NCBI GenBank assembly: GCA_046116545.1
Contig: CP175956.1
Coordinates: forward strand, 1,170,912-1,234,911
Direction: 5' to 3'
Length of the DNA: 64,000 nucleotides
Source of the DNA: Candidatus Moraniibacteriota bacterium
GTDB taxonomy: Bacteria; Patescibacteriota; Minisyncoccia; Moranbacterales; GCA-2747515
A program made the position numbers and the translations under genes. This document shows, in pieces, positions 9,567 through 55,783 of this stretch. A model generated the notes under the pieces. The model was given only the letters and a program-made list of their open reading frames with translations. It was not told where the DNA came from and did no database searches. How positions within the stretch are numbered: position 1 is the stretch's first letter; each line of letters begins with the position of its first letter.

Positions 9567-12500
9567 TTAATTGATTATAAACCAATCAACTTTCAAGTCT
9601 TCTAATCTTTCCTCCAACAACTTCACAACAAATGATTTTCCATCAATGATATCTTCTGCTGCCAAAGTTTGCTCAAGCGGAATTTTTGGACTAACAAACA
9701 CCCTACTATTCACATTAATAGACTCAGTTTCCACAATAACCTCAGTCTCACCAGCAACTATAGTAGCAGTTCCAATGGATGAAGCATTGATTTCGTTACC
9801 TTGTTCATCGTGTGTTGTTATATCGTCATTGATGTTCAATGTATTTGTTTCTATACTATTTACTTTTAAGTCATCTAATACAGTTAGACCTTCTATCGTG
9901 GTTATGAGTCTTGTAGTAGACATTGTATTATTATCTATTGTAAACAAGAATCTTTCATTTATGGCTAGAACTGTATCTGAATTTTTAGACACTGTACTTG
10001 CTAGATCTGACTGATATCCATCTAATTCATCCATTCTATCTTCTATTTCAGTTAGAGTTTCTGTTGCTAAAGTATTTGCATTTATTTGTAGTGACAGTAC
10101 CTCGTGCCTGTCATTAATTCCTCCTATGTCATCCTGAACTTGATTCAGGATCTCAGATGCATCATTTGTTTGTAATGACAAACCTAATTGTTTATCATTT
10201 AAATCTATAATTTGAGTATCAATTTCTGTTATCTTTTGTGGAGTTGGTAGGTTTGATATATCTATCAGATTTAGATTTGGTACTTCTTGTCCTGTTGTTA
10301 TATCTGTTATATATATTAGTTGTTGTCCTGTTAGTTTTTCTATCAATCTTACTGTTTTTGTCATATCTACATTTATTGATTTGTTGTCTTTTTCTGAGTA
10401 ATAGCTCCATGCTAATTCTTCACTTTCTCCTCCGGGTATAGTTGAGAAATTATGTGGAGATAGAGTTGTTGTATTTCCTGCTTCATCTCTTACTCTTAGT
10501 TCATGGGACCCACTTTGATCTACTGCAAACAGTTGTATCCCATTAACTATTGATGTTGTTGGAGCTATTGAGTTTGAGATTGTTAGGATATTATCTGCTG
10601 TTGTTCCGTAGTTACTTGATCCTATTCCTACGTTTCCTGATGTGTAGGCTATATTATTTCCTGTTTGGGTCCATGGAGAGTTTGTGGAGCCTCCTGAGGT
10701 TGAGCCTCGATCTAATTCTACCGCTTTAACACCTACAGAAAGACCTGCTGAATCTGCCTTCACCTGAGTTTTTTCTACAGGATGAAACCCTGTCTTATTA
10801 CCATAGTTAGTATTACTATTTGCTGTAAATAATTCATATGCAAATCCGTTTGCTGAAGGTGTACTATCATATGAGATACGCAAATAACCATTTGTACCAC
10901 CAAAGAGTACAGTTTCTGCTCGTGTTACTGGAATGATATTTGAATAATTTGGATAATTCCATGTTGTTGACATACTTGTTGTAAATAATGGACCTGTATC
11001 TTTTGCGAAATAAATTGTATCACCCTTCATTATAAATTGTTCAATATTACTTGAACTATCTGTTACTACATACCCAAGCCACCTATATGAAGTAAATCCA
11101 CTAGGTATATTTGTTGCATTTATATCTGTATCAAAACCTATGTCTGTTGTTCCATCATCTTTTTCTATTAGGAATACATAATACATTGTATCGTTTGCTA
11201 TTGTTCCACTGAATAGACCTCCTTGGTCATCTCCTTCTGAGAAGCTTGCATCTAATTGTTTTGTTAATCCTGTAGCTAATTCTAGATCTTTTAAATCTGT
11301 TTCATCTTTTGCGTATCCACTTGATACATATACATCATGGTCTGTATCTCCTGAGTCATTTGATAAGTTGAATCCGTATAGGAATCCTGGGGTGTACGAT
11401 GATGAGCTACTTCCTGATGATTCTTCTATTTTCCAGATTTTTAGGTCTGTGTATATTTCATATGGATTTCTATTAGAAGATCGTCCTTGTGCAGCAATAT
11501 TATCTGTGTAAAGAAGGAAATCAATTATTGTTTCTTCTGTAAAGGTTACTTTACCTGTAACAGTAGCATTATCATAATCAGCATATGTTGTACTTGCTGC
11601 TAAAAATGTGTTATCAATTTTTTGAATTTCTAAACGTGTTTTTCCTAAAGAACCAGTTCTAAAGGAAAGACCTGTACCTTCTAAATAATAGTCCCCCGCA
11701 GGTAGAGTGATTTGATTTGATGCAAGTGACGCACCTGCAATTTCATTTGTCATAACTGTATTTAATTGAAGTTGATTTTCACCCGTTGTAATTGTTTGTG
11801 GTGCAGTATTAGTTACTTTCTGATCCTGCACATGCATAAGATTCCAAGTTTGTCCTCCTCCAGATATACTTGAACTTCCACCTCCAATTAATGAACCAGA
11901 AAAGTTAGTCCAATAACCACCACTCATATTTTTATTTGCAGCATTATCATGATAAGCTCTTACTTCGAAATAATCTGTAGTTCCATTTGCATCAACAACA
12001 ACTGAAATTTTATTAGTACGATATGTACCCGTCAAATATCCATAATCACCTGTAACAACACTACCATTTTTATATATATACACTTGAGTTATATCACTAT
12101 CATTCAAATTTTCCCAACGAGTAGTAAAAGTTAATAAATATTTACCTTGAACTGTTGGAGTAAACTGCTCTGTTGTTAAATCAAAATCGTTATTTGTATC
12201 AAATTCCTCAGCATCCCAAGTTACTAAAGTATTTGTAGAACTTGGAATACTTTGGTCTACAGTGTTTTTATTTATACTAAATGATGAAGTGTTTCCAACT
12301 ACACCATCAGCACATTCCCAGTCACTACTCGCTTCATTATATGAAAGAGTTTGTCCATCTGTACATGTTGGTAATGATGATGATTCTGAACTTCCTGCGT
12401 ATTCGTATATTATAACTACACCATCGCTACCTGCTGATGCAGATCTAATGGTTGAACCATCATAACATCCTCCACCCCCACCAGAACCATAGCCTATACT

Positions 12501-15500
12501 TGTTTCAGCATTTTTTCCATTCTGTGCACTTTTAGCATTTTCAAATCCTAAAAATGATAATCCTCCATCTCCAGCTGGACAAGCTTGATAATTTGATAAT
12601 TCTTTTCCTCGTGAACCTGTGTTATTTATGTCACCACCGACTCCACTACCTGGAGCATCAGATACTGCCAATCTATTTCCTTTACCTCCACCAGTTGCTG
12701 ATACATGTGTATCAAATGATGTATCAGTACCACTAGTATTTACAACACCACCAGCACCTACAGTAACTGGAACACTTGTAATTGATGATACATCTATTAT
12801 TTTTTCTGCATAACCAGCACCACTACCTCCTCCACCTCCATAGTTTTCTTCATAGGCTTTTCCTCCTCCACCTCCACCAATAACCTGAACACGAATAGTT
12901 TCAATTCCTGCTGGTTTTGTCCATGTATGTGCTCCTGCTATATCAAATGTTTGGATTGACTTTATTCCACCTCCGCCTGAACTACTAACACCAGCACTAA
13001 CAATACTACTATCATCAGATGTAACTTCTGATATTCTTACACGTGTACTAAATTTTTCATCTGTTGTTCCACGACTTCCATTAATTAATAAAGTGCCATC
13101 ATATGATTTATGTCTGAATTTAAATTGAATATCAAAATCACCGGTTACACTACCTAATTCTGCACGTGTCATTCGTATCATTCCTGAATGTGTTTCTATG
13201 TCAGTAGCACCGTTAGACATCGCCAATTGATAACCAGAATTACCGATTGCAGTCCATGCACCACCATTAAGACTATACTCTAAATAAAGATATCCTCCAC
13301 CCCAACTAGTAGAAGCATTACGTGCAGGAATATTATAATCTAAATCAACATCAAAGCCATCACGAATTGTGACTGTATCCCATGTTTTACCATCAGTTAT
13401 TGCTGTGGTAAATGATCTATCAATATTATCATATTGCACAAATGAATGTGGAATTATACTTGTTCCACTTGAACTTCCTGTAGCAAAAGCTCCCCACTGC
13501 GTTCCATTACAAAACTCCATGACTTTTGTAGTGTCATTGTATCTCATTGCACCTTCTTTGTTTACATCACATGCATCTGTATCATTTGTTAGAGTTATTG
13601 ATCCTGTTAAGTTTATTGGTGTTGAAAACTCTATTTCATTTGATATTGTATTATATGATATTACTGCTTCATTTCCATCTTCTCCTATATGTAATGATGA
13701 TGGTCCTAGGTATAGATCTCTAAATCTATTTGTTGAAGATCCTAGGTCGTATGTATCATCTGTATCTGGTCCTATATGTCCTGCTACTTGTAGTGTGAAG
13801 TTATCTGGTGTTGTTGTTCCTATTCCTATATTTCCTGTGTCGTAGTATGCGTCTGAACCATTTGCTGTCCATAGGGATGAACTTGAACTTGATGAACCAC
13901 TTGATCCAACTGTTACATGTGCTGTACCTGTGAATACTGATGCTGCTAATGTATATTCATTTATATCATCTCCTGATGAACCTACTATAAATACTTTTGT
14001 TCCATCGTTGTTAAATGCTATTCCTGACACTACACCTTCTTGTGCTGATAAACTATATGTTCCTATATGACCTTCTGAATCTATATCAAATGGCCTTGCT
14101 AATGAATATTCATTAATTTCATCTCCATTTTGACCTACTATATACATTCTTTTTCCTCCTGGGCTAAATTCTATACCATTTGGATTTGCTTCTTCTACAC
14201 TAACTGATGATTGTTGTATAAAAGCTGCTGTTGTAACATCAAATGGTGTTGATAATGTGTATTCACCCACATCAATGCCAGTGCTACCAACAACAAACAT
14301 TTTTGTTCCATCATTATTAAATATCACATCATCTGGACCTGTGTCTTCTGTTGCTACTGAAAATCTGTCTGTATATGTAGCTGTTGATACATCAAATGCA
14401 GTTGACAATGTATATTGATTTACATCATCACCTGTGGTACCTATTACATACATGCTTGTTCCATCAGGATTAAATGTAAATCCCGTTGGAGATATTTCTT
14501 GTGTTGCAACTGAAAAACTATCTACAAAAGTTATTGTTGATGCGTCATATGGTGTTGATAGTGTATATTCATTTATATCATCACCTACACCTCCTAGAAT
14601 GAATAATTTTGTTCCATCATTGTTAAATTCTATATCTAATACAGTTGTATCTTGTGCTGTTAAACTCGTTGCATCCACAAAGCTCATAGTACTCAGATCA
14701 TACCCTGTTGCTACTGACTTTATGTCTAATGTAGTATTTGGAGCTATTACTCTTGTTATTTTATCTTTTGGATCTATATATTCTATTGTAATTCCGTCTT
14801 CTATTATTTCTATATGACCTTGAGTCATATCTGTTGTATCAATCATTACTGACATTGCCTCTGTTCCGTCTAAACTATCTAGTGCATTCCAAATTTCTGC
14901 TGTTGTAAAGATATGATTTATTCCTGAAGTCCCCCCAGAACTCCCAGCAGAAGAAGAACTTATTGTTACAGTTTGTGTTCCTGGTGATTTTTTAACTATT
15001 GTTAGAGTTTGATCTCCTAATCCTGTTGTTTGATATACAGTATAATCATCTGTTACATTTTTTTGTGCGTATCCTGTTGCATCAACACTAACATCTATTC
15101 TTTTTAGATTTGGGTTTTGTGTATCAGATGTTGAATAGAAAGTTGATGATAGATCAAAAGTTGTTTGATCTATTGCAAAGGATCCTGATGATTCCCAATC
15201 TGCATCAGATATTGATTCTAATGTTGTAGAGTTCATTTGATTCATTACTCCACTTTCTACTGCTTTTGATATTGCACTATTTGCATTATCTTCTATGCCT
15301 ACTGTACTCCAAGTATCTACGTTATCTCTGAAATACCAAGTTCCATCAGTTCCTCCATGAACTGATGCTTCTTTACTTGCAATGTATCTCCATGCTGAAC
15401 CAGTCCATACTTTGAAAGTATGTCTATTATTGAAACTTACCCCGTAGAATATTGATTGAGAGTTTAGGTTTTCTAATACACTTACTGAGTTTATATCTGT

Positions 15501-18500
15501 CCAATTTGCGCTATCTAAACCATCTTGGTTTGTTATTGTTGTTACGTATGCTCCTGTGTAGTTTCCTAGGGTTTTTTCGTAGAAGGTCATTTCTGAAATA
15601 TCTGTATAACTAGCATCACCATTATTTGCAGTAATATTTAATCTATAATATCTATATGCTGTATTATTAGTAAATCCTGAGTAATTTCTTTTTTCGTTAG
15701 ATAACCAATTCATTTCAGCTGAACGCACATCTAAAACAGTCCAAGTATTTGCATCATTACTTCCTTCAAATGTCCAATCTTTTGGTAATCTTGCTACAGT
15801 AATACCTTGAACAGAATACTCATAAACAATTGCTTCATTTCCTGATCCTAAATCATATTGAATGTGTGCAGCGCCACCCGGAGTACTTAACCATTGTGTT
15901 GAAGTGTTATCATCAAAGGCTCTACTTGGCACATAAGTAGCATAAGCTGAACTTGCCGTAGCAGCACCCCCAGTAGCAATATCACTAACATATTTAACAC
16001 TAGTAGCCTGTCCCAATGTATGAGCTGCATTACTTCCATCGAAGTATGTTCCATATATATTATCTACATCATATATTCCTAATTCTATTTCATTATCATT
16101 TGTGATATGTACTGATTCATTTGCTGTTCCATCTCCTGTTACATCTGTAATTGTGAACCACGCATCTTCCATTTTAAATCTTGATCCTACTCTTACTTTA
16201 TCTGCTGTATTTCCACTTCCTATTGATACTGCTGTATCTGATACGTCTTCGAAGTGTCCTTTGTTGTTGTGTTGGTCTGCGAAGAATTCTAATTCTGAAA
16301 TATCTGTATAACTAGCATCACCATTATTAGCAGTAATATTTAATCTGAAATATCTGTATGCCGTATCATTAATAAATCCTGAGTAATTTCTTTTTTCATT
16401 AGCTATCCAACCCATCTCAGCTGAACGCACATCTAATGCAGTCCAAGTATTTGCATCATTACTTCCTTCAAATGTCCAATCCTTTGGAGCTCTTGTTACA
16501 GAAGTGCTTCGAACAGAATATTCAGAAACAATAGCTTCATTTCCTGATCCTAAATCATATTGAATCTGTGCAGCGCCACCTGGAGTACTTAACCATTGAG
16601 TTGACGTATTATCATCAAAGGCTCTACTTGGTGGATAAGAAGCATGATGAGCACTTGATGTAACAGCCCCACCCGTAGCCAAATCAGGACCAGTACCTCC
16701 ACCAGTATCAACTAAGTCAACTTGAAATTGAGTTATGTTTTCTTTTAAATCTTCTTGTGTATAATTATCTTCTGAATTGTAATTTATGTTTTGTATTTTA
16801 TCAGTTTCTGTTTGTTCTTCTGTAATACTTACAATTGCTGAACCTGATACTGTTGTTGATTCTCCTTGTGCTAGAGTTACTTGAGTTTGAGTTACTCCAC
16901 TTCCTGATGTTCCTGTTGATAATCCTCCCCATATAGTTCCATTACAAAACTCCATGACTTTTGAAGTGTCATTGTATCTCATTGCACCTTCTTTTGTTAC
17001 GTCACAAGCTGATGCGTCATTATTGAGAGTTATACTTCCTCCTATAGCTAGATTGTTTCCATCGTATGTGAAGTTTGAGTTTTGAGTTATTGCATTTCCT
17101 GCACTATTTGTGAATTGTATTTGATTTGCACTTAGGCTTGCTGGTGTATCTGTTAGTCCTGTATATGTTGAAGTTCCTCCACTTGATGTTAGAGAGTTCC
17201 ATACTGAACCATCGTATCCTTCTAGATCTGTTCCACTCCATCTTATCATTCCTGCTACTGCATTTGTACTTGTTCCAAATACTGCTGCTTTATCAAAGTT
17301 GAAAGCTTCGTTTATTGTATCGTAACTTATTATTCCTTCATTTCCGTTTTCTCCTATATGTAGAGAGTTTGGTCCTAGGTATAGGTCTCTGAATCTATTT
17401 GTACTACTTCCTAGGTCGTATGTATCATCTGCATCTGGTCCTATATGTCCTGCTACTTGTAGTTTGAAGTTTGTTGGAGTATTTGTTCCTATTCCAATAT
17501 TACCGTTACTATTTAGAATAGTAAACAAACTAGATGAAAATAAATCAGTAGTACTTGCACCACCACCTCTAGTAATTACAAAATCATTCCCCAAAAGTCC
17601 TTGTTGCCAAGCAGTTTGACCGCCTCTATGAAAAGACAAGTATGGAACATTCCCATCATCAGTGGAACTATTTGAATAAATTTCTTGAAAAGCAAATGTA
17701 CCATTTCCAATTTGATTTTTCATTGTTGAACCTGAATATGCACTTTCTACTTCTAATTTACTATTTGGTACCATTGTTCCTATGCCAATACTTCCTGCAA
17801 AATAATTTTTTGCAGTACTATTTTTTTGATATACTCCATATTTATTTATAACATTTGCTCCACCATCTAGATTATCAAGAAAAATTGCATATGAATTTGT
17901 AATTGTTCCTGTCGGATTGATTGTATTAGAGCCCACTCTACTCCATATACCATACTGTTCATTTAGAGCTCCTTGAAAATTTGAATCATTCGTAAAACCT
18001 TGAACACCTAATCCAATTCTATATCCCGAGTCTAAAACACCTGCCGCTATTGGCAAATCATAACCTGTGATATCTACAACTTTATAATGATTTGTTCCAC
18101 TAGCTATAACATCTGGATATGTTTCACCTATGTCTAATGTATTTGCTATTGGAGGATTTACCGCTATCCCAATTGAATCATAACTTGCATCTATACTAAA
18201 TAGATTCAAAATGTTTTCTCCTTCAATTCTAAAGTTATTATCTCCACCTTCTTCATTAAAAATCGCACTTCCTCTAACATCCAACATTGCATTTGGACTA
18301 TCCGTCCCAATCCCAACTCTCCCATTAACAGTATCAACAAAAAAATCATTTGAATTAACTGTAAAGTCATCTCCCAGAGTTAATCCTCCAGTTTTATTTT
18401 GAATTGAGTTTGAAGTATTTAAATAGTAATCTTCTGTTTGTCCATTAAACCTATGTGAGTTTAAAGCAAAACCTGTTGGAGTTATTTTTCTTCTTGGAGT

Positions 18501-18872
18501 CATCTCTGAATTTGAGTTTATTGTTACTCCTAGGTAATAGTTTGAATCAAAAGTTATATCTAATACATTATCTCCACTTTCTCCTAGAGTTGTACTAAAT
18601 ATCCCATTTGTTATTGTTAAAGTTTTTGAAGTTGGAGTTCCACATGTTCCTCTACTAGTCCATAGACATGTTCCTCCTGATTCTGCATCATATATTGTTA
18701 ATGTGAAATCATAATCTCCATCTGATACTGCTACGTTATTAGTATCTGTTAGTTTTCCATGATATGTTAGTTCACTGTCTGGTGCAGCTTGTGTAATTGA
18801 AAAATTAAGAATTATTGCTAACGCAATTATTCCTAATATGTAAGTTAATTTGTTTTTGAAAGTTTTTTTCAT
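9567..18872 (-). CDS. Giant (3101 aa) secreted multidomain surface protein with phage tail-fibre-like motifs, two discoidin (F5/8 type C)-like domains, a Gly-rich domain and beta-propeller-like repeats
   Basis: Single uninterrupted 9.3-kb ORF; signal peptide; recurrent VGIGT..P..L.V.G and DLGSS.NRFRDLYLG motifs; duplicated SRAFDDNTSTQWLS...YRYFRLNITAN discoidin-like domains; GGGGGG-rich block; 6 tandem repeats of about 48 aa. Confidence 0.8.
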   Translation of the reverse strand: MKKTFKNKLTYILGIIALAIILNFSITQAAPDSELTYHGKLTDTNNVAVSDGDYDFTLTIYDAESGGTCLWTSRGTCGTPTSKTLTITNGIFSTTLGESGDNVLDITFDSNYYLGVTINSNSEMTPRRKITPTGFALNSHRFNGQTEDYYLNTSNSIQNKTGGLTLGDDFTVNSNDFFVDTVNGRVGIGTDSPNAMLDVRGSAIFNEEGGDNNFRIEGENILNLFSIDASYDSIGIAVNPPIANTLDIGETYPDVIASGTNHYKVVDITGYDLPIAAGVLDSGYRIGLGVQGFTNDSNFQGALNEQYGIWSRVGSNTINPTGTITNSYAIFLDNLDGGANVINKYGVYQKNSTAKNYFAGSIGIGTMVPNSKLEVESAYSGSTMKNQIGNGTFAFQEIYSNSSTDDGNVPYLSFHRGGQTAWQQGLLGNDFVITRGGGASTTDLFSSSLFTILNSNGNIGIGTNTPTNFKLQVAGHIGPDADDTYDLGSSTNRFRDLYLGPNSLHIGENGNEGIISYDTINEAFNFDKAAVFGTSTNAVAGMIRWSGTDLEGYDGSVWNSLTSSGGTSTYTGLTDTPASLSANQIQFTNSAGNAITQNSNFTYDGNNLAIGGSITLNNDASACDVTKEGAMRYNDTSKVMEFCNGTIWGGLSTGTSGSGVTQTQVTLAQGESTTVSGSAIVSITEEQTETDKIQNINYNSEDNYTQEDLKENITQFQVDLVDTGGGTGPDLATGGAVTSSAHHASYPPSRAFDDNTSTQWLSTPGGAAQIQYDLGSGNEAIVSEYSVRSTSVTRAPKDWTFEGSNDANTWTALDVRSAEMGWIANEKRNYSGFINDTAYRYFRLNITANNGDASYTDISELEFFADQHNNKGHFEDVSDTAVSIGSGNTADKVRVGSRFKMEDAWFTITDVTGDGTANESVHITNDNEIELGIYDVDNIYGTYFDGSNAAHTLGQATSVKYVSDIATGGAATASSAYATYVPSRAFDDNTSTQWLSTPGGAAHIQYDLGSGNEAIVYEYSVQGITVARLPKDWTFEGSNDANTWTVLDVRSAEMNWLSNEKRNYSGFTNNTAYRYYRLNITANNGDASYTDISEMTFYEKTLGNYTGAYVTTITNQDGLDSANWTDINSVSVLENLNSQSIFYGVSFNNRHTFKVWTGSAWRYIASKEASVHGGTDGTWYFRDNVDTWSTVGIEDNANSAISKAVESGVMNQMNSTTLESISDADWESSGSFAIDQTTFDLSSTFYSTSDTQNPNLKRIDVSVDATGYAQKNVTDDYTVYQTTGLGDQTLTIVKKSPGTQTVTISSSSAGSSGGTSGINHIFTTAEIWNALDSLDGTEAMSVMIDTTDMTQGHIEIIEDGITIEYIDPKDKITRVIAPNTTLDIKSVATGYDLSTMSFVDATSLTAQDTTVLDIEFNNDGTKLFILGGVGDDINEYTLSTPYDASTITFVDSFSVATQEISPTGFTFNPDGTSMYVIGTTGDDVNQYTLSTAFDVSTATYTDRFSVATEDTGPDDVIFNNDGTKMFVVGSTGIDVGEYTLSTPFDVTTAAFIQQSSVSVEEANPNGIEFSPGGKRMYIVGQNGDEINEYSLARPFDIDSEGHIGTYSLSAQEGVVSGIAFNNDGTKVFIVGSSGDDINEYTLAASVFTGTAHVTVGSSGSSSSSSSLWTANGSDAYYDTGNIGIGTTTPDNFTLQVAGHIGPDTDDTYDLGSSTNRFRDLYLGPSSLHIGEDGNEAVISYNTISNEIEFSTPINLTGSITLTNDTDACDVNKEGAMRYNDTTKVMEFCNGTQWGAFATGSSSGTSIIPHSFVQYDNIDRSFTTAITDGKTWDTVTIRDGFDVDLDYNIPARNASTSWGGGYLYLEYSLNGGAWTAIGNSGYQLAMSNGATDIETHSGMIRMTRAELGSVTGDFDIQFKFRHKSYDGTLLINGSRGTTDEKFSTRVRISEVTSDDSSIVSAGVSSSGGGGIKSIQTFDIAGAHTWTKPAGIETIRVQVIGGGGGGKAYEENYGGGGGSGAGYAEKIIDVSSITSVPVTVGAGGVVNTSGTDTSFDTHVSATGGGKGNRLAVSDAPGSGVGGDINNTGSRGKELSNYQACPAGDGGLSFLGFENAKSAQNGKNAETSIGYGSGGGGGCYDGSTIRSASAGSDGVVIIYEYAGSSESSSLPTCTDGQTLSYNEASSDWECADGVVGNTSSFSINKNTVDQSIPSSTNTLVTWDAEEFDTNNDFDLTTEQFTPTVQGKYLLTFTTRWENLNDSDITQVYIYKNGSVVTGDYGYLTGTYRTNKISVVVDANGTTDYFEVRAYHDNAANKNMSGGYWTNFSGSLIGGGSSSISGGGQTWNLMHVQDQKVTNTAPQTITTGENQLQLNTVMTNEIAGASLASNQITLPAGDYYLEGTGLSFRTGSLGKTRLEIQKIDNTFLAASTTYADYDNATVTGKVTFTEETIIDFLLYTDNIAAQGRSSNRNPYEIYTDLKIWKIEESSGSSSSSYTPGFLYGFNLSNDSGDTDHDVYVSSGYAKDETDLKDLELATGLTKQLDASFSEGDDQGGLFSGTIANDTMYYVFLIEKDDGTTDIGFDTDINATNIPSGFTSYRWLGYVVTDSSSNIEQFIMKGDTIYFAKDTGPLFTTSMSTTWNYPNYSNIIPVTRAETVLFGGTNGYLRISYDSTPSANGFAYELFTANSNTNYGNKTGFHPVEKTQVKADSAGLSVGVKAVELDRGSTSGGSTNSPWTQTGNNIAYTSGNVGIGSSNYGTTADNILTISNSIAPTTSIVNGIQLFAVDQSGSHELRVRDEAGNTTTLSPHNFSTIPGGESEELAWSYYSEKDNKSINVDMTKTVRLIEKLTGQQLIYITDITTGQEVPNLNLIDISNLPTPQKITEIDTQIIDLNDKQLGLSLQTNDASEILNQVQDDIGGINDRHEVLSLQINANTLATETLTEIEDRMDELDGYQSDLASTVSKNSDTVLAINERFLFTIDNNTMSTTRLITTIEGLTVLDDLKVNSIETNTLNINDDITTHDEQGNEINASSIGTATIVAGETEVIVETESINVNSRVFVSPKIPLEQTLAAEDIIDGKSFVVKLLEERLEDLKVDWFIIN
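13870..14770. repeat. Coding tandem repeats (about 144-nt period, 6 copies) inside the giant gene
   Basis: Encodes repeated FNNDGTK.F..G..GDDINEYTLS units. Confidence 0.6.
15595..15928. repeat. Direct repeat copy 1 (about 334 bp, about 90% identical to copy 2) inside the giant gene
   Basis: Nucleotide-level near-identity seen by eye; encodes a duplicated discoidin-like domain. Confidence 0.8.
16297..16631. repeat. Direct repeat copy 2 inside the giant gene
   Basis: See copy 1. Confidence 0.8.
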
Positions 18873-42687: not shown

Positions 42688-45255
42688 CTACTGATAAAAC
42701 CCACTAGCATCAGAGGTAGCAGTATAAGTAACAGAACCAGTATATATTCCTGAAGGTTGTGATGGTGATACATCAACTTTGTAACATACATCAGTTGTTG
42801 ATGAAGTTGAATTATATGCTGTGTGTGCTGCTACTGCTTGAGCTGTTTGTGGTACACCTGCGTATTGGGCATCATCTGATGTTGTTCCTTCTTCGCATAG
42901 GTTTCCTGAGGTTGTCCATACGTTATTAAACGTATTATTTGTTGTATCTGCTTGTGGAAATTGTATTACACTGAATCCTAGACCTTTTGTTGTTGGAGCG
43001 TTCCATGATTCTGTTACTTTTGTTGTTTCATTGAATTGTGTTAGGTCTGGTATTTCATCTGTATTATTTGAATGTACTAGAGTTGTATTTGAAGCTCCAT
43101 TATCATTTATCATTGACAGGTAGTAACCTTGGGTATCATTTGTTGTTACTATACAAGTTGATTGTCCTACTGCTGGAGTTCCTGCTATTACTATTCCTGG
43201 ATTTGCTATTGTTCCTAGTATTACATCGTAATCTCCTGTTACACCATCTTTATCGTAACAATCCATTGATAGGGTTGCATTTACTTCTACATTTAGGTTT
43301 AGGTCATCTATTCCTGATATTGTTCCATCTCCGTTTACAATATAAGTTGTTGCATGGTTTGTTGTGAATGTACATATTCCGTTTGTTACTGTACATGTTG
43401 TATGTAGGACTTCAGTTCCTTGTGCTGCTCCTTCCTCTCTCGAAAGTACATCCAATATCATTCCATTGTAAGCTTCGCTTACAGTTATTTCCATTGTTAT
43501 ATCATTAGTAAAGTCTAATGATATTCCTGGTACACCTATTCTTACTGCTCCTACTGCATTTGGTAGATTTACTTGTTCACTTGTTAATGTATTTTCTGTT
43601 ATGAAGTTTTCAAAGTTAAAGTTTCCATTTAAACTTTCGGTTATTACTGTATTATTTGGAAATATTGCATTTGTTGTATTTGATTGGAATGTTACTTGTA
43701 CTTGGGTTGTTGTTTGGGTTGTGTTATCTATTGTTCCGTTGTCTACTGTTATATATCCATTATCTACTGATTGTTGCATTTCTGAATTATTTGGGTCTGT
43801 GATTATCACTTCTTCTACTACATCATCTACTGATATTATTATTTGTTTTTCGAATTGTTCTTGTAATGATTTGTATATATTTGAATTTATATTCTTTGTT
43901 GCATCGTTATAAAAATTTGTAACAACTAGATAATTTTCCATTCCTATCATAAAGTATTCCCAACTTGTTGCACCACTTGTTGCGATTGATTGAAATTCTA
44001 CAAAAGTTGAACCGTTCCATTTGTAGATTTTTGAGTTTATATTATATGTTGAACCATTATAATTATTTGCAACAACTAAATAATGTTCTGTGTCTATTGT
44101 AAAGTATTCCCAGTCTGATGCACCATTTGTCGCAATAGACTGAAACTCCACAAAAGATGTTCCATTCCATTTGTAGATTTTTGAGTTTATATTTGTTGAG
44201 CCATTGGAATAATTTGCGACTACCAGATAATCATCTACACCTATTGTGAAATGCTTCCAACCCGATGCACCGCTTGTTGCGATTGATTGAAAATCTACAA
44301 AAGATGTTCCATTCCATTTGTAGATTTTTGAGTTTATATTATATGAACCACTATATGAATTTGCAAGTGCCAAATAGTTATCTGTACCAATTGTAAAGTA
44401 TTCCCAACTATTTGCGCCAGTCGTTGCAATTGATTGAAATTCTACAAAAGATGTTCCATTCCATTTGTAGATTTTTGAGTTTATATTTCTCGATGAACCA
44501 TTATAATAATTTGTAACAGCTAGATAATCATCTATACCTATTCTGAAATGTTCCCAATTTCTTGCACCATTTGTTGCAATTGATTGAAGCACTCCAAAAG
44601 ATGTGCCGTTCCATTTGTAGATTTTTGAGCTTATGTTATATGTTGAACCATTATAATAATTTGTAACAGCCAAATAATCATCGGTACCTATCGTAAAGTG
44701 TTCCCAGTCTGATGCACCGCTTGTTGCGATTGATTGAAAATCTACAAAAGATGTTCCATTCCATTTGTAGATTTTTGAGTTTATATTATATGTTGAGTTA
44801 TTATGATAATTTGCAACAACCAGATAATCATCTGTGCCTATTGTGAAATATTCCAAGTCTTGTGCTCCATTCGTTAAAATGCCTTGTTCCAATACAAAAT
44901 CAGAATATGAATCAGTTGTTTTCACTCTTGTTGAATAGTTATTATCGCCAGGAGTACCTCCTAGGTCTTCTGGATTTTCATAATCTGGTGTAAAGTTTAG
45001 ATTTAGATTATCTCCATCTATTGTGAATTTGGAATTATCTTCGTCTCCTATTCCATTTATTAATTCATATGTGTATGGAGAATTTCCTCCTGTTGTAGTT
45101 AAAGTTCCTGAAGTTGTTCCACTTGGTGTATTTTCATCTATACTATCTGAACTTCCTCCATCTATTTGTATATCTGTTATTGCTGCTTGTGTTGTCTGTG
45201 TTAAAAAAAGTATAACAATCAATGTTATTGGGAATAGTAATATATATTTTTTCAT
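42688..45255 (-). CDS. Secreted 855-aa protein: N-terminal cadherin-like domain plus eight EAR/EPTP-like beta-propeller repeats plus a C-terminal region
   Basis: Signal peptide; IDENTPSGTTSGTL...YTYELI...FTIDGDNL cadherin-like pattern; 8 repeats SKIYKWNGTSFVDFQSIATSGASDWEHFTIGTDDYLAVTNYYNGS resembling LGI1/ADGRV1 EPTP repeats (IYKWNG, YLVVAN). Confidence 0.7.
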   Translation of the reverse strand: MKKYILLFPITLIVILFLTQTTQAAITDIQIDGGSSDSIDENTPSGTTSGTLTTTGGNSPYTYELINGIGDEDNSKFTIDGDNLNLNFTPDYENPEDLGGTPGDNNYSTRVKTTDSYSDFVLEQGILTNGAQDLEYFTIGTDDYLVVANYHNNSTYNINSKIYKWNGTSFVDFQSIATSGASDWEHFTIGTDDYLAVTNYYNGSTYNISSKIYKWNGTSFGVLQSIATNGARNWEHFRIGIDDYLAVTNYYNGSSRNINSKIYKWNGTSFVEFQSIATTGANSWEYFTIGTDNYLALANSYSGSYNINSKIYKWNGTSFVDFQSIATSGASGWKHFTIGVDDYLVVANYSNGSTNINSKIYKWNGTSFVEFQSIATNGASDWEYFTIDTEHYLVVANNYNGSTYNINSKIYKWNGSTFVEFQSIATSGATSWEYFMIGMENYLVVTNFYNDATKNINSNIYKSLQEQFEKQIIISVDDVVEEVIITDPNNSEMQQSVDNGYITVDNGTIDNTTQTTTQVQVTFQSNTTNAIFPNNTVITESLNGNFNFENFITENTLTSEQVNLPNAVGAVRIGVPGISLDFTNDITMEITVSEAYNGMILDVLSREEGAAQGTEVLHTTCTVTNGICTFTTNHATTYIVNGDGTISGIDDLNLNVEVNATLSMDCYDKDGVTGDYDVILGTIANPGIVIAGTPAVGQSTCIVTTNDTQGYYLSMINDNGASNTTLVHSNNTDEIPDLTQFNETTKVTESWNAPTTKGLGFSVIQFPQADTTNNTFNNVWTTSGNLCEEGTTSDDAQYAGVPQTAQAVAAHTAYNSTSSTTDVCYKVDVSPSQPSGIYTGSVTYTATSDASGFYQ
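43905..44930. repeat. Coding tandem repeats (about 147-nt period, 8 copies) for the EAR/EPTP-like blades
   Basis: ccatttgtagatttttgagtttatatt recurs at a regular period. Confidence 0.75.
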
Positions 45256-46789: not shown

Positions 46790-47157
46790 ATATTATTGGA
46801 AGACAGTTAATAAGCCGGATTCTGTCAAAAAATAAATTTTGGATGACAATCTATCTTGTTTATATGTTGCCATATAAATCCTTGCGACTCTTTCCAATTA
46901 CTTGGAATACGGTCTTGCACTTCAGTAAGGATTTAGCCGTTTCACTCTCTGTGTTACCACAAAGCATTATCCAAATAAATTTGGATAGTTTTTTACTTGC
47001 GCAAAAAACCGTCACTGCTCGCACCTCGTAGATTACTCTAGACGGGTATTACCCGCTACCGTTTTTTTGGTCATAAAGACCAAACTAGTGTCCGGACTTT
47101 CCTCTCCGAAATAAATTTCAAGAGCTGTCATCAAACGGTCTCCCAATAATATAAATG
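46790..47157 (-). ncRNA. rnpB: RNase P RNA (bacterial)
   Basis: Both conserved P4 strands are present on the minus strand: GAGGAAAGTCCGGAC (reverse complement of 47090-47108) and ACAGAATCCGGCTTAT (reverse complement of 46805-46826); terminal P1 pairing GGGAGAC/GTCTTCC; length about 370 nt. The + strand ORF 46786-47031 is spurious. Confidence 0.8.
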
Positions 47158-49673: not shown

Positions 49674-50333
49674 TTATTTGTCAGGATCTGACATTGAATC
49701 CGAATCTGTTAAGTCCTCATCCTTAGATTCAACAGAAGAGACTTCATTAATCGGCTCAGACTGTTCACGTTTCGGCTCATCGACAACATCAGAGCTATCG
49801 TCATCTTCTGACTCCAACACTTCCTCATCAGCTTCTTGAAGACCATCGTCTTCTTTCTCATGATCAGACTTATCAGCAGAATGCCCCACACTAACACCAG
49901 CAGCAACCGCTGCTACTTCCGGAGATACCGAGCCTGACTTCTCCTTTTCAACTTCTGTAGAAGCATCATCTTTTTTCTTATGGTCAGACTTATCATTAGC
50001 ATGAGCAGCAGCAATACCTCCCTCAGGTTTTACTCTTGACTTAGGATTGCTTTTCTTCGCCAACTGCATTTTTTTCACAACGAAATAGAAAACTCCAAAC
50101 ATAATACCAAGCACTATGGCATCGCCATACCAAGCAGCGGGAAGACATAAGATGGCCCCCGCAGCCATAATTGGCCAACCAAAAAACATTACCTTAATAT
50201 CACTTAAGTAATCTGGGCCAACTTTGTCATTCAAAAATTTTTGTCCCCTTGGATGCCTTTTTGCAACCTCAGCAATAATACCTATGATTATACAAACAAT
50301 ACCCACTAAATTCTCTTGCCAAAATAAAGTCAT
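49674..50333 (-). CDS. Membrane protein (3 TM) with a long acidic, internally duplicated C-terminal tail
   Basis: Hydrophobic N-terminal half; the tail repeats AAHANDKSDHKKKDDAS and VGHSADKSDHEKEDDGL; D/E/S-rich. Confidence 0.45.
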   Translation of the reverse strand: MTLFWQENLVGIVCIIIGIIAEVAKRHPRGQKFLNDKVGPDYLSDIKVMFFGWPIMAAGAILCLPAAWYGDAIVLGIMFGVFYFVVKKMQLAKKSNPKSRVKPEGGIAAAHANDKSDHKKKDDASTEVEKEKSGSVSPEVAAVAAGVSVGHSADKSDHEKEDDGLQEADEEVLESEDDDSSDVVDEPKREQSEPINEVSSVESKDEDLTDSDSMSDPDK

Positions 50334-50446: not shown

Positions 50447-50488
50447 TAAAAATAAAAATTGCTTCGTAGAATTTATCTACGAAGCAAT
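50447..50488 (-). terminator. Intrinsic terminator of the 50512-51711 gene, with a second weaker hairpin at about 50423-50449
   Basis: 13-bp perfect stem attgcttcgtaga/tctacgaagcaat with a 5-nt loop; T-run on the minus strand. Confidence 0.55.
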
Positions 50489-50511
50489 TATACTTCCCTA
50501 CAGACTTACGA

Positions 50512-51711
50512 CTATGTCGTAACTTCTGCAGTTATTTCTTCACTCTTTTCTTCTTCATCTCCCTTAAGAATGTCGATATCCTTCTTGAACGCTATAATTA
50601 GAGATACTAAGAAAGCTACCAGAAATGGTCCCACCAACGCACCCTTGAGACCGTATGCATTCATCCCTGCAATCATGCAAAGCATCAATGCAACAGCTGA
50701 TAATGTTGCTTCCTCGCCACCTAAGACTTTGAACTTGATCCAGTTATCACATGTTGCAACAAGAACTGTTGCAACAAGTAAAACACCTGTTGCTATATAA
50801 TGACCTTGCACTGCACTAATAACAACTAACCCGATTACTACTGGGGTTGCTACAAGCGGAAGTCCACAAGCAGATGTCGCAATAGCCAGTATGGCAATAA
50901 CCAAAAGCACAGCTATGTCTACAGGCATATACATAAAACAATATATCCCCACAATAAGCGTAGCCAAACCTCCCTGTCCCAAGCCAACTGCTACCATACT
51001 TTTTACAAGACTATTCATAACCTTCTGGACATCCAGGAGGATTTGTCTCGTATCCTCTTTTCCAAAAAAGGCGATATGCGGAAGCAGCCACTCTATCATC
51101 TTTTTACCTCTCAAAAGAAAAATAATTACGGCTACTACAGTTATGCTTATATCAACAAAGATCTTCCACACTTTTGCTAAAGTACCTGTAACTGCTCCGA
51201 GAACTGATTTACTTAATTTGCCAATCATACCACCACCCTGAAGTAGGACAGTGACACTGCCAAAATTTGAATCAGCTATCTCTATAGCCTTGTCCACAAA
51301 CATTGTTGACCATTCATGTTTTTTCTTTACTTTTACAAGCAAGTCCACAGCCTCTTCCTGAAATTCCGTAACCATAGTACTTCCATCCTTCACAGCCTCA
51401 ATTCCAGTATCAATCTTGTTGATACCATATACCCCAAAGCCCACCATCACAATAAAACACATGCCAATAAATGACATTATCATTATTGCTATAGCCGTCT
51501 TTGCTCTTCCTCCCAAAAACTCACTGAGAGGCTGATATACCGTTGGATACAACGCCGATGCTAATACTGCACCAATAAAAAATTGTGATACAAATGGTGT
51601 TATCATGGGCATAGTCACCCACATCATAAAAGCAACAAAAACTGCCCCTGCTACTTTCATTACTACTACCTTGTCTTTGGCTGTGTACCTGATATTTGGT
51701 CGTGTTTTCAC
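50512..51711 (-). CDS. Polytopic membrane protein, possibly AI-2E family transporter-like
   Basis: 399 aa, about 8-9 TM with a soluble loop after TM3; C-terminal GLKGALVGPFLVAFLV region resembles the AI-2E end motif; the assignment is weak. Confidence 0.4.
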   Translation of the reverse strand: MKTRPNIRYTAKDKVVVMKVAGAVFVAFMMWVTMPMITPFVSQFFIGAVLASALYPTVYQPLSEFLGGRAKTAIAIMIMSFIGMCFIVMVGFGVYGINKIDTGIEAVKDGSTMVTEFQEEAVDLLVKVKKKHEWSTMFVDKAIEIADSNFGSVTVLLQGGGMIGKLSKSVLGAVTGTLAKVWKIFVDISITVVAVIIFLLRGKKMIEWLLPHIAFFGKEDTRQILLDVQKVMNSLVKSMVAVGLGQGGLATLIVGIYCFMYMPVDIAVLLVIAILAIATSACGLPLVATPVVIGLVVISAVQGHYIATGVLLVATVLVATCDNWIKFKVLGGEEATLSAVALMLCMIAGMNAYGLKGALVGPFLVAFLVSLIIAFKKDIDILKGDEEEKSEEITAEVTT

Positions 51712-51824: not shown

Positions 51825-53000
51825 CTATACTGCATGTTCTTGAGATATTTTATCCCATTTGATCATGCCCTCCTTAAATCGTTTTGATCGAAGATACTCA
51901 ATGAACATTCCCGCTTCAATACAACGTGATTTTGGTGGATTAACTTCAAGCTTGCCACCAGCTTTGTGACCTGCTGCAATTGCATCTGCTTTATTATTTC
52001 CTGACTTGAAAAATCTCTTCAAATCATCCCAACTACATCCGTCGAAATCCTCCGGAACTTGCAAACGATATTTTGTTTGTCCATCAGCATCTATCATATC
52101 CATCATGGTATACGATGATCCTGGATCCTGTATGCACCTAGCAATTAGCTCAGGCATACTAGTTGGAACAGGCTCGATGTTTTCCCCAAGAAGTTTAACA
52201 ACAGGAGCATTTTCATGCATTACGTCAAACGCAACTACAATATGAGCCTTTGGATTTACATTTCTCATAATGATACATAATGCGATGTTATAATTATCAT
52301 CACCTGTATCAATCAAAATTCTAGCAGCATCTGCGATACGTGCCTCTTTGAGAAATTTGTCAGACTTAAATCCTGTCTTGGTGCTTTTGCCACTGACAAT
52401 TCCACTCATTGGGTTTTTGTCATACCTCTCCTTATCAAAGCATAACAATAATTGTCGTTTTTCTCTACGAGTGTCGGCCAAAATATTATCAATGATAATA
52501 TTTGTTCTATTTCGTTGAAACGAAATAATTGGTATATGATCTTTTATACTCACAATGATATCTCCATGATATATTTTGTACGAAATTTTCCAAAAATCTT
52601 TAACCAACATTGCACCATAAGCAACTAAAAAGGCCGGGTAAAAATTGAATGAAAATGCAGAAACTAGCCTACCCATTTCTGACACAGGAGCCACATCTCC
52701 AAGTCCAACTGTTGAACTCAAAGCACTGACAAAATATAAATAATTTATCCAATTAGTTATATCGTTGTCAACAGGCTCAAATGAAATAAATATTCCCCAA
52801 TTAAAAAGAAAATATGACACCCAAATTATGACGGGCCACTTTGACTTAAATAGCTCTTTTTCTATTTCTAGAAAAATAAACGCTGCAGTAGCCGACTGTG
52901 ACTCCAGTCTCCCATATACAAACCCACGTACTTTTTTTGCAATACTTAGCAAATTAGCACGTATACCTGATAATATATTTTTTGACTTATTCACATTCAA
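51825..53000 (-). CDS. Two-TM potassium-channel-like protein with a noncanonical TVGLGD pore motif and a C-terminal cytoplasmic domain
   Basis: TM1, then pore helix plus STVGLGDVAP, then TM2 (KcsA-like layout); the C-terminal ~250 aa are not clearly RCK (no GxGxxG). Confidence 0.5.
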   Translation of the reverse strand: MNVNKSKNILSGIRANLLSIAKKVRGFVYGRLESQSATAAFIFLEIEKELFKSKWPVIIWVSYFLFNWGIFISFEPVDNDITNWINYLYFVSALSSTVGLGDVAPVSEMGRLVSAFSFNFYPAFLVAYGAMLVKDFWKISYKIYHGDIIVSIKDHIPIISFQRNRTNIIIDNILADTRREKRQLLLCFDKERYDKNPMSGIVSGKSTKTGFKSDKFLKEARIADAARILIDTGDDNYNIALCIIMRNVNPKAHIVVAFDVMHENAPVVKLLGENIEPVPTSMPELIARCIQDPGSSYTMMDMIDADGQTKYRLQVPEDFDGCSWDDLKRFFKSGNNKADAIAAGHKAGGKLEVNPPKSRCIEAGMFIEYLRSKRFKEGMIKWDKISQEHAV

Positions 53001-53169
53001 TCCCCCTCCTTTTCATCACAGTTTTCTGATATATTTTGTTAAAAAAACTAAAATCTAACACAATTTACACATTATAAATTGACTCATCAGATTAGCATAA
53101 ATTACAAAAGAAATCAAGTATAGTATCTTACATCCCACCTTCAACCTTAATCACAAATAAATATAAAAG

Positions 53170-53246
53170 CCTGTCATTCCGGAAGATATTATTTGTATCA
53201 GAGCGGTTAGCGATGATAACCAAATAAATCTGTCCGGAATCTATAC
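53170..53246. repeat. Intergenic palindromic repeat, long form
   Basis: cctgtcattccggaag...tctgtccggaatctatac; same termini as 48827-48906. Confidence 0.55.
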
Positions 53247-53410
53247 TGTGACATTAAAGGTCAGCTTTCGTACAAGTGATTTTTTGATGGATGGACAGGC
53301 ACAAGGCACTGTCCCTACTAAAAATCTATTTTACGAAATGACAGAAATTCAATATTTTTGTTGATTGAAATTTGAATTAGAATTCAGGAGTAAATGATAC
53401 TATCCCTACA

Positions 53411-53452
53411 AAAAATAAAAAGCTGCAGAAACATTATATAATGTTTCTGCAG
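53411..53452 (-). terminator. Intrinsic terminator of the 53461-54447 gene
   Basis: 13-bp perfect stem ctgcagaaacatt/aatgtttctgcag with a 4-nt loop; A-run upstream on +, so a T-run on the minus strand. Confidence 0.6.
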
Positions 53453-53460
53453 TTAACTAC

Positions 53461-54447
53461 TTATTGTTCTTTTTTTGGGAGATCTAGCCTAGACTCCTCA
53501 TCAGGTTCCCAGTCTAGTTCAAAAGCATCATCAATTTCTTCTTCCTCAACTTCAAAACCAATTTCGCCTTCATCAATATCCAACAATGAAAGTTCCCGAT
53601 CATCATCAAGTTCCGAATCTCCTCCATCTTCTATATCAAATATTCCTAAATCCAAATCATCCTCTTCATCATCAAGAAAAGTAGATGATACAGACTCATC
53701 CTCAATTTCATCTTCTTGTGTATCTGTCATTACTGGTTCAGTATCCAATATTGATATAGTGCCTATCTCTGAATTCATTGCGGTTAGTTTGTCAGATAAT
53801 TCACCCAATTCTGCTGTAACAACCTGCTGTAACATGTTGATTAAACCACTGAAATGATCTACTAAATGATCATTATTTTCACCTACCTGTTGTAATAAAT
53901 TGGCAACAATAGTATCAATAGCCAGCTCTCCAGTTTGAGTGCCACTATGCTTATAAAACTTTTGCAATGATGCGTCCATGGCAGTGCTCAATCGTGTAAC
54001 CTCTCTTCCTTCGACATCACGCATTTCAGTGAGTTCTTCACGTAATTCATCACCCTCTTTACGCAATGCTACAATCATTTGTTGTGCCTCTGCCTCACCT
54101 TCCTGCAATCGTTTACGTTCTTTTTCAACTAACTCAAGAGTCTTTTTCACACCTCCCAACTCACTAACACGCTCATAGAGAGCATCAGCCTTGTCTTCTT
54201 CCTTCACTAATCGCTTATTAAATTGAAATGCAAGTCTACTAAACCCTGCTACCATGAAAGCCAGTGCTACAATACAAATTGTAGCCCCAGCATTCATGCC
54301 CATCCATGCTAACAACTCGCTTGATGAATCTGCAATATTTGTAGTTAAATAACTCCAAGATACTTGTGCTGACTCTCGTAAAGTTTCAATCATTTTTCCC
54401 ATCTCCAAGTTATAATTTTGTATTGTAAAACAACAATTAATTTGCAA
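53461..54447 (-). CDS. Single-pass membrane protein with a coiled-coil domain and a highly acidic C-terminal tail
   Basis: TM (ATICIVALAFMVAGF), a long Glu/Lys-rich helical region, and a C-terminal DDEEDDLDLGIFDIEDGGDSELDDD tail; the real start is probably an internal Met. Confidence 0.45.
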   Translation of the reverse strand: MQINCCFTIQNYNLEMGKMIETLRESAQVSWSYLTTNIADSSSELLAWMGMNAGATICIVALAFMVAGFSRLAFQFNKRLVKEEDKADALYERVSELGGVKKTLELVEKERKRLQEGEAEAQQMIVALRKEGDELREELTEMRDVEGREVTRLSTAMDASLQKFYKHSGTQTGELAIDTIVANLLQQVGENNDHLVDHFSGLINMLQQVVTAELGELSDKLTAMNSEIGTISILDTEPVMTDTQEDEIEDESVSSTFLDDEEDDLDLGIFDIEDGGDSELDDDRELSLLDIDEGEIGFEVEEEEIDDAFELDWEPDEESRLDLPKKEQ

Positions 54448-54562: not shown

Positions 54563-55783
54563 TTATTTATTGCGCTGTGCTTTTTCAAAATCTCCAACAG
54601 TTTGTAAATCATCTTCATCAATAGAATCCTCTGTCATATCCACTTCAGAAAGATACACAAATGTATTCAACTTTTTAAGCATGAGCGCAGCCATCTCCAA
54701 TAAGTCAATTGGATCTGTAGAGTCATTGATATCTACAACTGGCTTTGTTGATACCATTTTTGGAATTAACTCAAGTCCTTCAACACTCTTTTCAAGTTGC
54801 TTCATCAACGCCTGTCGATCACCTGCAAGCAATCTTGTGATCAGATCCTCATCAACTGATTTATTCACAATAATTACTTTTTTCTTAATAGTGTCAAGTT
54901 GGTTACTGGATTCTGCATTCAATTCTGCAACAGTCCATGTGTGAATGCCTGAACGTTCACTCTGTATAGCAGTGAGACGCTTATCTATATCAACTTGATA
55001 TTGCTTGATAGCTTTTTCAACAAGCTTATCAAGATCAACTTCCGGTGCACTCTTAGCATCCTCAAGCTTCTTCACCAGACCGTCAGTAAGAGTTTCCAGT
55101 GACTTATTAATTGAATCACTTCCGTCTCCAAGTTGTTTCTTTACAAAATCATGCAATTCCTGCATCGGAACTTTCATCTCTGCGGCCACATTTTCAGCCA
55201 GCGCTTTACCATTATCATCAGGACCGATAGTAATCACTGCACCAATGACTTCAGCCATTTCTTTGAGATTAGTCAGGACCTCTTTGTTAAAAATTGGCAC
55301 AGAAATTGGATTTTCATCAACTCCTGATGATTGTTTCAATTCACCCACAGGACTTACCTCAAGTTCCTTGAAAAAATCAACCCCATAAAACTCACGCAAG
55401 GCTTCTAAATTACTCAACTTACGTCGACCAATTTTATCAGCTATTTCTTGCTCAAGCTTTTGCTTGTCTTGTGTCAGCTTTTTAACATCATTCTCTGACT
55501 TCTTGATGATTTTATCTAACACCTTTATTTGATCTTGACTTGCTAAGTCATATTTTTTCAATCGCGCAATTTTTTTCAATCGCTTTTTAGTGGCACGTTT
55601 CTGTGCCCAAATCACCGCACACAGTACGATAAATAGAATCCCAACTCCTCCAATTGCAATAGCAAACGGAGAATTTGTCAAAAATTCTTCCCCAAAATTT
55701 GTCATTACATTCTTAACAGACTCAATAATTTCGCCTACTTCAACTCTAATGTTGCCATCAGTTACACTTATCACACTTGCCAT
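54563..55783 (-). CDS. Single-pass membrane protein with coiled-coil domains and an acidic C-terminus (paralogous architecture to 53461-54447)
   Basis: TM (FAIAIGGVGILFIVLCAVIW), then KRATKKRLKK, then coiled-coil segments, then a C-terminal EDSIDEDD. Confidence 0.45.
   Translation of the reverse strand: MASVISVTDGNIRVEVGEIIESVKNVMTNFGEEFLTNSPFAIAIGGVGILFIVLCAVIWAQKRATKKRLKKIARLKKYDLASQDQIKVLDKIIKKSENDVKKLTQDKQKLEQEIADKIGRRKLSNLEALREFYGVDFFKELEVSPVGELKQSSGVDENPISVPIFNKEVLTNLKEMAEVIGAVITIGPDDNGKALAENVAAEMKVPMQELHDFVKKQLGDGSDSINKSLETLTDGLVKKLEDAKSAPEVDLDKLVEKAIKQYQVDIDKRLTAIQSERSGIHTWTVAELNAESSNQLDTIKKKVIIVNKSVDEDLITRLLAGDRQALMKQLEKSVEGLELIPKMVSTKPVVDINDSTDPIDLLEMAALMLKKLNTFVYLSEVDMTEDSIDEDDLQTVGDFEKAQRNK

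Follow-up and report, generated by a model that had tools for sequence, protein, structure and literature searches.

The gene analysed here encodes a channel of the MthK-type class, in which a two-transmembrane (two-TM) pore is followed by a single cytosolic RCK domain, and we consider its product probably to be an RCK-gated, K+-permeable tetrameric channel that takes part in cation and pH homeostasis together with the AI-2E-family transporter encoded next to it. The gene lies in a 64,000-nt stretch of DNA from a Candidatus Moraniibacteriota bacterium (hereafter, the window; all positions are those of the window). Its selectivity filter carries leucine where tyrosine is usual. The features of the gene and of its immediate surroundings are as follows.

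53423..53452, minus strand: terminator-like hairpin and T-run, which ends the gene upstream of the channel gene
51825..53000, minus strand: channel gene, 391 aa from the TTG at 53000
53005..53010, minus strand: Shine-Dalgarno-like AGGAGG, separated from the TTG by 4 nt and from an alternative GTG by 10 nt, read directly
52845..53000, minus strand: N-terminal extension, aa 1-52, with two predicted amphipathic helices (pLDDT 60-70)
52779..52841, minus strand: TM1, the outer helix, aa 54-74, from hydropathy and AlphaFold
52713..52751, minus strand: pore helix, aa 84-96 (WINYLYFVSALSS), from the MthK alignment and AlphaFold
52695..52712, minus strand: filter signature TVGLGD, aa 97-102, with the Leu100 codon CTT at 52701-52703
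52596..52679, minus strand: TM2, the inner helix, aa 108-135, with Pro122 where relatives have a glycine hinge
52551..52565, minus strand: possible internal start, consisting of GGAG (52562-52565), 8 nt, and GTG for Val150 (52551-52553)
51846..52553, minus strand: RCK (TrkA_N-type) domain with C-terminal subdomain, aa 150-385, from Pfam, the MthK alignment, the model and Foldseek
50512..51711, minus strand: divergent AI-2E-family transporter gene, 113 nt downstream of the channel gene and on the same strand
50457..50489, minus strand: terminator-like hairpin and T-run after the AI-2E gene

The alternative GTG start (52992-52994), two codons past the TTG, would give a product of 389 aa. The gene has a GC content of 36%, and the protein is 100% identical to a 389-aa JGI metagenome sequence (P0001) labelled 'Ion channel/TrkA-N domain'. 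Its first ~34 aa are without counterpart in the ~350-aa proteobacterial relatives described below.

Hydropathy analysis placed two hydrophobic helices on either side of the STVGLGDVAP motif (aa 96-105, positions 52686-52715), and the AlphaFold model has helices at residues 54-74, 84-96 and 108-144 (the last comprising TM2 and the linker), with the filter loop at residues 97-107. The Ion_trans_2 profile (PF07885) matched aa 59-116 with a score of 32 bits (E 1.1e-7), the cut-off being 22.5; scores with this profile were 29-32 bits here, compared with 44-50 bits in relatives with a GYG filter. When all PDB sequences were searched with phmmer, aa 83-367 fell on MthK residues 45-318 in one alignment, with TVGLGD on TVGYGD and Leu100 exactly on the Tyr of the MthK filter. 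At this position the protein has the K+ channel signature T-x-V-G-(Y/F/L)-G, as defined with Y, F or L in PMC12332018, but not the strict GYG form, and T97, V98, G99, G101, D102 and P105 are all retained. The preliminary description had read the gene product as a two-TM K+-channel-type protein with Leu replacing the filter Tyr. Both parts of that reading hold: the motif is positionally equivalent to the filter, column for column with MthK, and the layout of TM1, pore helix, filter and TM2 was recovered by hydropathy, AlphaFold, Ion_trans_2 (above its gathering score) and Foldseek. The supposition that the motif only resembles a filter by chance, and that the protein is no channel at all, has the modest Pfam score of 32 bits and nothing more in its favour; we rejected it as having a negligible chance of being correct, with the sequence, profile, secondary-structure and fold evidence all in agreement.

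The preliminary description had further proposed that gating would depend on an unknown domain, and this part of it must be given up, for the C-terminal 240 aa constitute an RCK domain. Pfam TrkA_N matched there with 25.9 bits (cut-off 23.8), and the MthK alignment spans the whole RCK domain, including the C-terminal subdomain, to MthK residue 318. The AlphaFold2 model, a monomer built on a 120-sequence alignment with a mean pLDDT of 81.7, shows a Rossmann-type beta-alpha-beta alternation after TM2 and then a small beta-rich subdomain. The best Foldseek match to this model in the PDB was full-length MthK (8djb_A, E 3.4e-13, probability 1.00), and the next matches were Slo1/BK channels, Slo1 likewise at probability 1.00, and isolated MthK RCK domains. 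The GxGxxG motif is absent from aa 140-391, where a direct reading agreed with the preliminary description; the beta1-alphaA loop is IISFQRNRT (aa 158-166). The missing motif is no argument against an RCK domain because MthK has CGWSES at the same loop, and at the sequence level it argues only against binding of the NAD type. MthK-type Ca2+ gating was also considered and rejected on the ground that the acidic triad is not conserved: D184, E210 and E212 of MthK Ca2+ site 1 correspond to D231, A257 and V260, and D231 is acidic in our protein but not conserved across the family. A motif typical of the family, QDPGSS, occupies aa 291-296.

In MthK, an internal start at Met107 yields a soluble RCK domain, copies of which complete an octameric ring, and it is possible, by analogy, that the internal GTG at Val150 would give a similar product here. 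In each of the five loci of the low-GC subfamily described below, an in-frame start codon (GTG in two, ATG in three) precedes the beta1 His by 2-6 codons, and a purine-rich motif (GGAG, GGGGGA or GGAGAGG) stands 4-8 nt before it in four of the five, the Gly-Asp codons that form GGAG being also constrained as protein.

MthK, the Ca2+-gated K+ channel of Methanothermobacter (PDB 1lnq, 3rbz, 8djb), is the known system most like the one described here. Both have the same 2TM pore followed by one RCK domain with a C-terminal subdomain, neither has GxGxxG, and in both genes an in-frame start codon stands just before the RCK domain. The two proteins differ in that their identity is only 13-17%, the MthK filter is GYG whereas ours is GLG, the glycine of the TM2 hinge is replaced by Pro122, a 50-aa N-terminal extension is present in the window protein, and of the residues at the MthK Ca2+ triad only that at the D184 position is acidic. 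A group of ~350-aa proteins from Endozoicomonas, Rhodospirillales, Myxococcota and others (P0003-P0120) are full-length homologues, the closest members giving E <= 1e-36 with the single sequence and values down to 1e-176 with a profile. H155, D235, F258, E276, R288, D292-P-G-S, K332, N354, R374 and W382 are invariant between this group and the window protein; however, identity is 22-31%, and the group has GWHGSR in the RCK loop and PGG at the TM2 hinge. The nucleotide-binding KTN/RCK proteins (TrkA, KtrA) are distinguished by a GxGxxG loop, in place of which our protein has IISFQRNRT. The NaK and CNG-type channels share the pore fold and have a non-aromatic residue at the Tyr position, the NaK filter being TVGDGN; in contrast, TVGLGDVAP keeps Asp after the second Gly and then Pro, and it is not a filter of the NaK type. 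The P2 loops of TWIK-type K2P channels and some chlorella-virus Kcv channels have a signature that is canonical except for Leu at the Tyr position, and they are reported to be functional. Their architecture is nevertheless unrelated, with four-TM tandem pores or minimal viral pores that lack an RCK domain, and Leu is present in two of the four filter strands of K2P channels as opposed to all four in a homotetramer of the window protein.

The preliminary description expected the Tyr-to-Leu change to weaken K+ selectivity and suggested a non-selective cation channel. Loss of selectivity is not implied by Leu alone, because the natural K+ signatures number three and include GLG; weakened selectivity is nevertheless possible, given the relaxed or shifted constraint on the pore that the sequence comparisons below suggest. 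Reviews of functional K+ channels, K2P and Kcv among them, give GLG as a natural signature alongside GYG and GFG (PMC12332018, PMC3369850, PMC8616229). In GIRK2, however, the GYG-to-GLG substitution produced a non-functional, dominant-negative subunit (PMC2232885), and according to a recent study of K2P channels, Na+ permeability can follow from atypical residues in the filter, the effects of variants not being predictable in silico (PMC11513965).

How unusual the filter is among relatives was apparent from the database searches. A single-sequence search of 5.8 billion proteins found only five relatives of the channel protein, whereas the profile made from these relatives gave 377 matches, with E values down to 1e-176, most of them ~350-aa proteins annotated as 'potassium channel family protein' (Endozoicomonas, Rhodospirillales and similar). 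GYG was present in 118 of the 120 best profile matches, the exceptions being the window protein with GLG and P0002, 61% identical to it, with GSG; T97, G99, G101, D102 and P105 were invariant across the 120 aligned sequences. With phmmer, 1.84 billion cluster representatives were searched exhaustively, and 420 of them matched at E <= 0.001. The filter census covered 149 proteins among the matches listed, with P0002 left out: GYG was found in 121, GFG in 17, GLG in one and a completely degenerate filter in two, and eight were fragments without a pore. The preliminary description had suggested looking for the GLG variant in homologues, and the one other example among these 149 matches, P0224, is independent of the clade of the window protein. 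The two degenerate cases, P0172 and P0199, are full-length relatives with unrecognisable filters (ILRGGYADYTP and VLRGVESGYAP), and therefore loss of the K+ signature is recurrent in the RCK-channel family. More members of the narrow clade were sought in JGI metagenomes, and none was found with patterns from a two-sequence alignment or with a degenerate PIISFQRNRT pattern. A pore-only homologue search for other prokaryotic GLG pores gave one candidate and no match.

Contig look-ups of the nearest relatives defined a subfamily of five loci, namely the window and those designated L004, L086, L087 and L088. The locus DNA is 35-39% GC and at least partly from Patescibacteria, and the channels are of ~375-393 aa with an N-terminal extension. 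Their filters form a series, TVGYGD in L088, TVGFGE in L087, TVGLGD in the window and TVGSGD in L004, and in L086 a 1-nt deletion lies within GTTGGGCTGGAGAT. The L086 orthologue (L086 4001-4947; GCA_027023225.1, JALVWU010000023.1) is split into P0180 and P0121 by this deletion and a second 1-nt deletion near aa 305, and the repaired filter would be either GLG or GAG, according to the G-run from which the base is missing. The L086 gene is possibly a genuine pseudogene, but the breaks may also have arisen in assembly. The broken ORFs are present on three contigs, and the AI-2E neighbour in L086 is intact and 72% identical to that of L004. The channel ORF is intact in both the window and L004. 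The Leu codon CTT and the Ser codon TCT are each one step from the Phe codon TTT, which fits a GFG ancestor of the GLG and GSG filters. To our knowledge, there is no functional K+-selective precedent for GSG.

The pore was found to evolve much faster than the RCK domain in this clade. When the three close relatives are compared, identity is 33-46% over the pore module (aa 55-135) but 70-80% over the RCK domain (aa 150-385), and the resulting pore/RCK identity ratio of 0.42-0.65 in the narrow clade falls below that of all 6,903 pairs of other family members (mean 0.89-0.95, minimum 0.69). The pore dN was 0.68 against 0.19 for the RCK domain, a 3.6-fold higher value; dS was saturated at ~2, so that dN/dS could not be used and the comparison is limited to dN in the pore against dN in the RCK domain. 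The pore dN is far below dS and, therefore, the pore appears still to be under purifying selection, with a constraint much weaker than that on the RCK domain. In the narrow clade the glycine hinge of TM2 has also become Pro122, and the RCK loop has changed from GDRGSR/GERGER of deeper members to SFQRNR/TFQRNR, with loss of the residual glycines. A functional shift is plausible when the Leu is considered together with the Ser of the sister gene and the rapid evolution of the pore. The occurrence of GYG, GFG, GLG, GSG and a frameshift on one conserved scaffold would offer a test bed for the role of the filter aromatic in the selectivity and stability of a homotetramer.

The second element of the system is the AI-2E transporter gene. 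An AI-2E_transport gene was found directly downstream of the channel gene and on the same strand in all five subfamily loci, and these AI-2E genes are mutually homologous; it was absent at the one proteobacterial locus examined. When the window was scanned for terminator-like sites, none appeared in the interval between the channel and AI-2E genes, a result that suggests a two-gene operon. The 64-kb window contains a second, canonical AI-2E gene (6662-7687, minus strand), which scored 194 bits compared with 61 bits for the channel-linked copy. Some AI-2E proteins export AI-2, and others are Na+(Li+)/H+ antiporters (PMC7221264). No publication connecting AI-2E with RCK channels came up in a literature search. 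We know of no case of an RCK domain that regulates an AI-2E transporter. The GLG variant and RCK gating are each known already; what is new here is the pairing of the channel with AI-2E together with the eroding filter series, which is of modest interest. The pair is conserved in bacteria of the candidate phyla radiation, a group in which ion homeostasis has received very little study, and few AI-2E-family transporters have a known substrate.

Synteny upstream of the channel gene is partly kept in the subfamily and comprises a ~580-aa protein, a ~400-aa protein and a small Cys-rich membrane protein, the last of which is missing from the window. Syntenic homologues of the 406-aa and 590-aa upstream proteins of the window were observed in L088, and of the 590-aa protein also in L086. 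The proteins encoded on either side of the pair (53461-54447, 54563-55783 and 49674-50333, all on the minus strand) each have a single TM and a long tail that is highly acidic and of coiled-coil or low-complexity type, and no convincing Pfam match was obtained for them.

By analogy with MthK, four subunits would assemble to form the pore, and their RCK domains, possibly joined by soluble copies made from the internal start, would build the gating ring. Binding of a cytosolic ligand to the ring would then open the inner helices, and this ligand is expected to act neither as an NAD-type ligand through GxGxxG nor as Ca2+ at a D184/E210/E212 site. In the KcsA structure the side chain at the filter Tyr position points away from the ion path and makes no ion contact. 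K+ passage through the Leu100 pore is expected because this side chain would point off the ion path and because T97, V98, G99, G101, D102 and P105 are kept; such a pore would still pass K+, as do the natural GLG filters of K2P and Kcv, though K+/Na+ selectivity may be reduced. The channel and the AI-2E protein would probably act jointly in cation and pH homeostasis, as might be envisaged from the Na+(Li+)/H+ antiporters among AI-2E proteins.

Several observations stand against the K+-channel reading, namely the dead GLG mutant of GIRK2, the GSG relative, the frameshifts of L086, the pore/RCK identity ratio, the low Ion_trans_2 score and the Pro at the hinge, and they can be accommodated in more than one way. 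One could envisage that without a packed aromatic the upper ion sites collapse or widen, and that Na+ and K+ both pass through a non-selective, RCK-gated cation channel, as they do through filters of the NaK or CNG type. The replacement of Tyr by Leu here and by Ser in a 61%-identical relative, where 118 of the 120 best family members keep GYG, would be in keeping with such a channel, as would the alteration of near-invariant Thr residues of the pore helix (SALSSTVGLGD in the window for the consensus ATTATTVGYGD), a pore module that evolves faster than in any other pair of the family, and the Na+ permeability that atypical filter residues can confer on K2P (PMC11513965). T-V-G-x-G-D and P105 are intact, however, unlike in NaK, the natural GLG filters of K2P P2 loops and Kcv are K+-selective, and the side chain at the Tyr position does not contact ions; we regard a non-selective channel as unlikely.

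The same rapid divergence of the pore could also mean that channel function is being lost, and that the membrane part of a decaying or non-conducting pore serves mainly to anchor a still functional RCK domain, which might, for instance, regulate the neighbouring AI-2E protein. Besides the difference in identity and the 3.6-fold higher dN, the two 1-nt deletions of L086, one of them inside the filter and both beside an intact AI-2E gene, the unrecognisable filters of the distant relatives P0172 and P0199 and the non-functional GIRK2-GLG would agree with this. It is rendered improbable by the conservation of the filter glycines, Thr, Asp and Pro in the window and L004, by a pore dN still far below dS, and by the lack of a known case, or of any in our literature search, of RCK regulation of AI-2E; moreover, the L086 frameshifts could be errors of assembly in a low-coverage metagenome-assembled genome. 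A broader reading, which we hold to be rather doubtful, takes the changes as those of one Patescibacteria lineage in which the filter aromatic was lost stepwise (from GYG through GFG to GLG or GSG, and finally a frameshift), the hinge Gly became Pro and the RCK glycine loop disappeared, with the RCK domain highly conserved throughout and the gene still linked to a divergent AI-2E gene. Selective K+ conduction would then no longer be the conserved function; the membrane-anchored RCK module would make up a two-component system with the AI-2E transporter, either regulating it or allowing a non-selective leak of cations that is coupled to an antiporter. The RCK-gated, K+-permeable channel remains the reading that we prefer.

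The gene upstream of the channel gene ends in a terminator-like hairpin and, therefore, the channel gene is probably transcribed from a promoter of its own within the 460-nt spacer that follows. This non-coding spacer (53001-53460) is unusually long and holds a GGGACAG...CTGTCC hairpin. A riboswitch, such as a c-di-AMP or other K+-linked element, was considered for the spacer and rejected, as no Rfam family came near its gathering score, folding gave a z of only -2.15, and the spacer is missing from the related loci. Where the window has the spacer, three related loci have a gene for a ~120-aa one-TM Cys-rich protein with CxxC motifs, of which tblastn of the window found no trace.

The window as a whole is ~33% GC. 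Its UvrB shows 85-89% identity to the top four genome matches, of which three are metagenome-assembled genomes labelled Candidatus Moraniibacteriota, and the window is assigned to that group accordingly. A phage origin was rejected: megablast gave no match to the phage collection, and UvrB, MurJ, Mur ligase, FemAB and RNase P RNA mark the window, which also carries glycosyltransferase genes, as bacterial chromosome. The RNase P RNA is of bacterial class A (46795-47143, minus strand) and scored 109 bits, the gathering score being 100. An 855-aa protein encoded at 42688-45255 (minus strand) has seven EPTP repeats (PF03736, 317 bits); this repeat is known mainly from the LGI/epitempin proteins of animals and is unexpected in a candidate-phyla-radiation bacterium. 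A giant ORF of 3,101 aa at 9567-18872 (minus strand) has domains of the F5/8 type C (discoidin) and glycine-rich kinds, besides matching a C1q-like domain weakly, and its product is probably a surface or adhesion protein.
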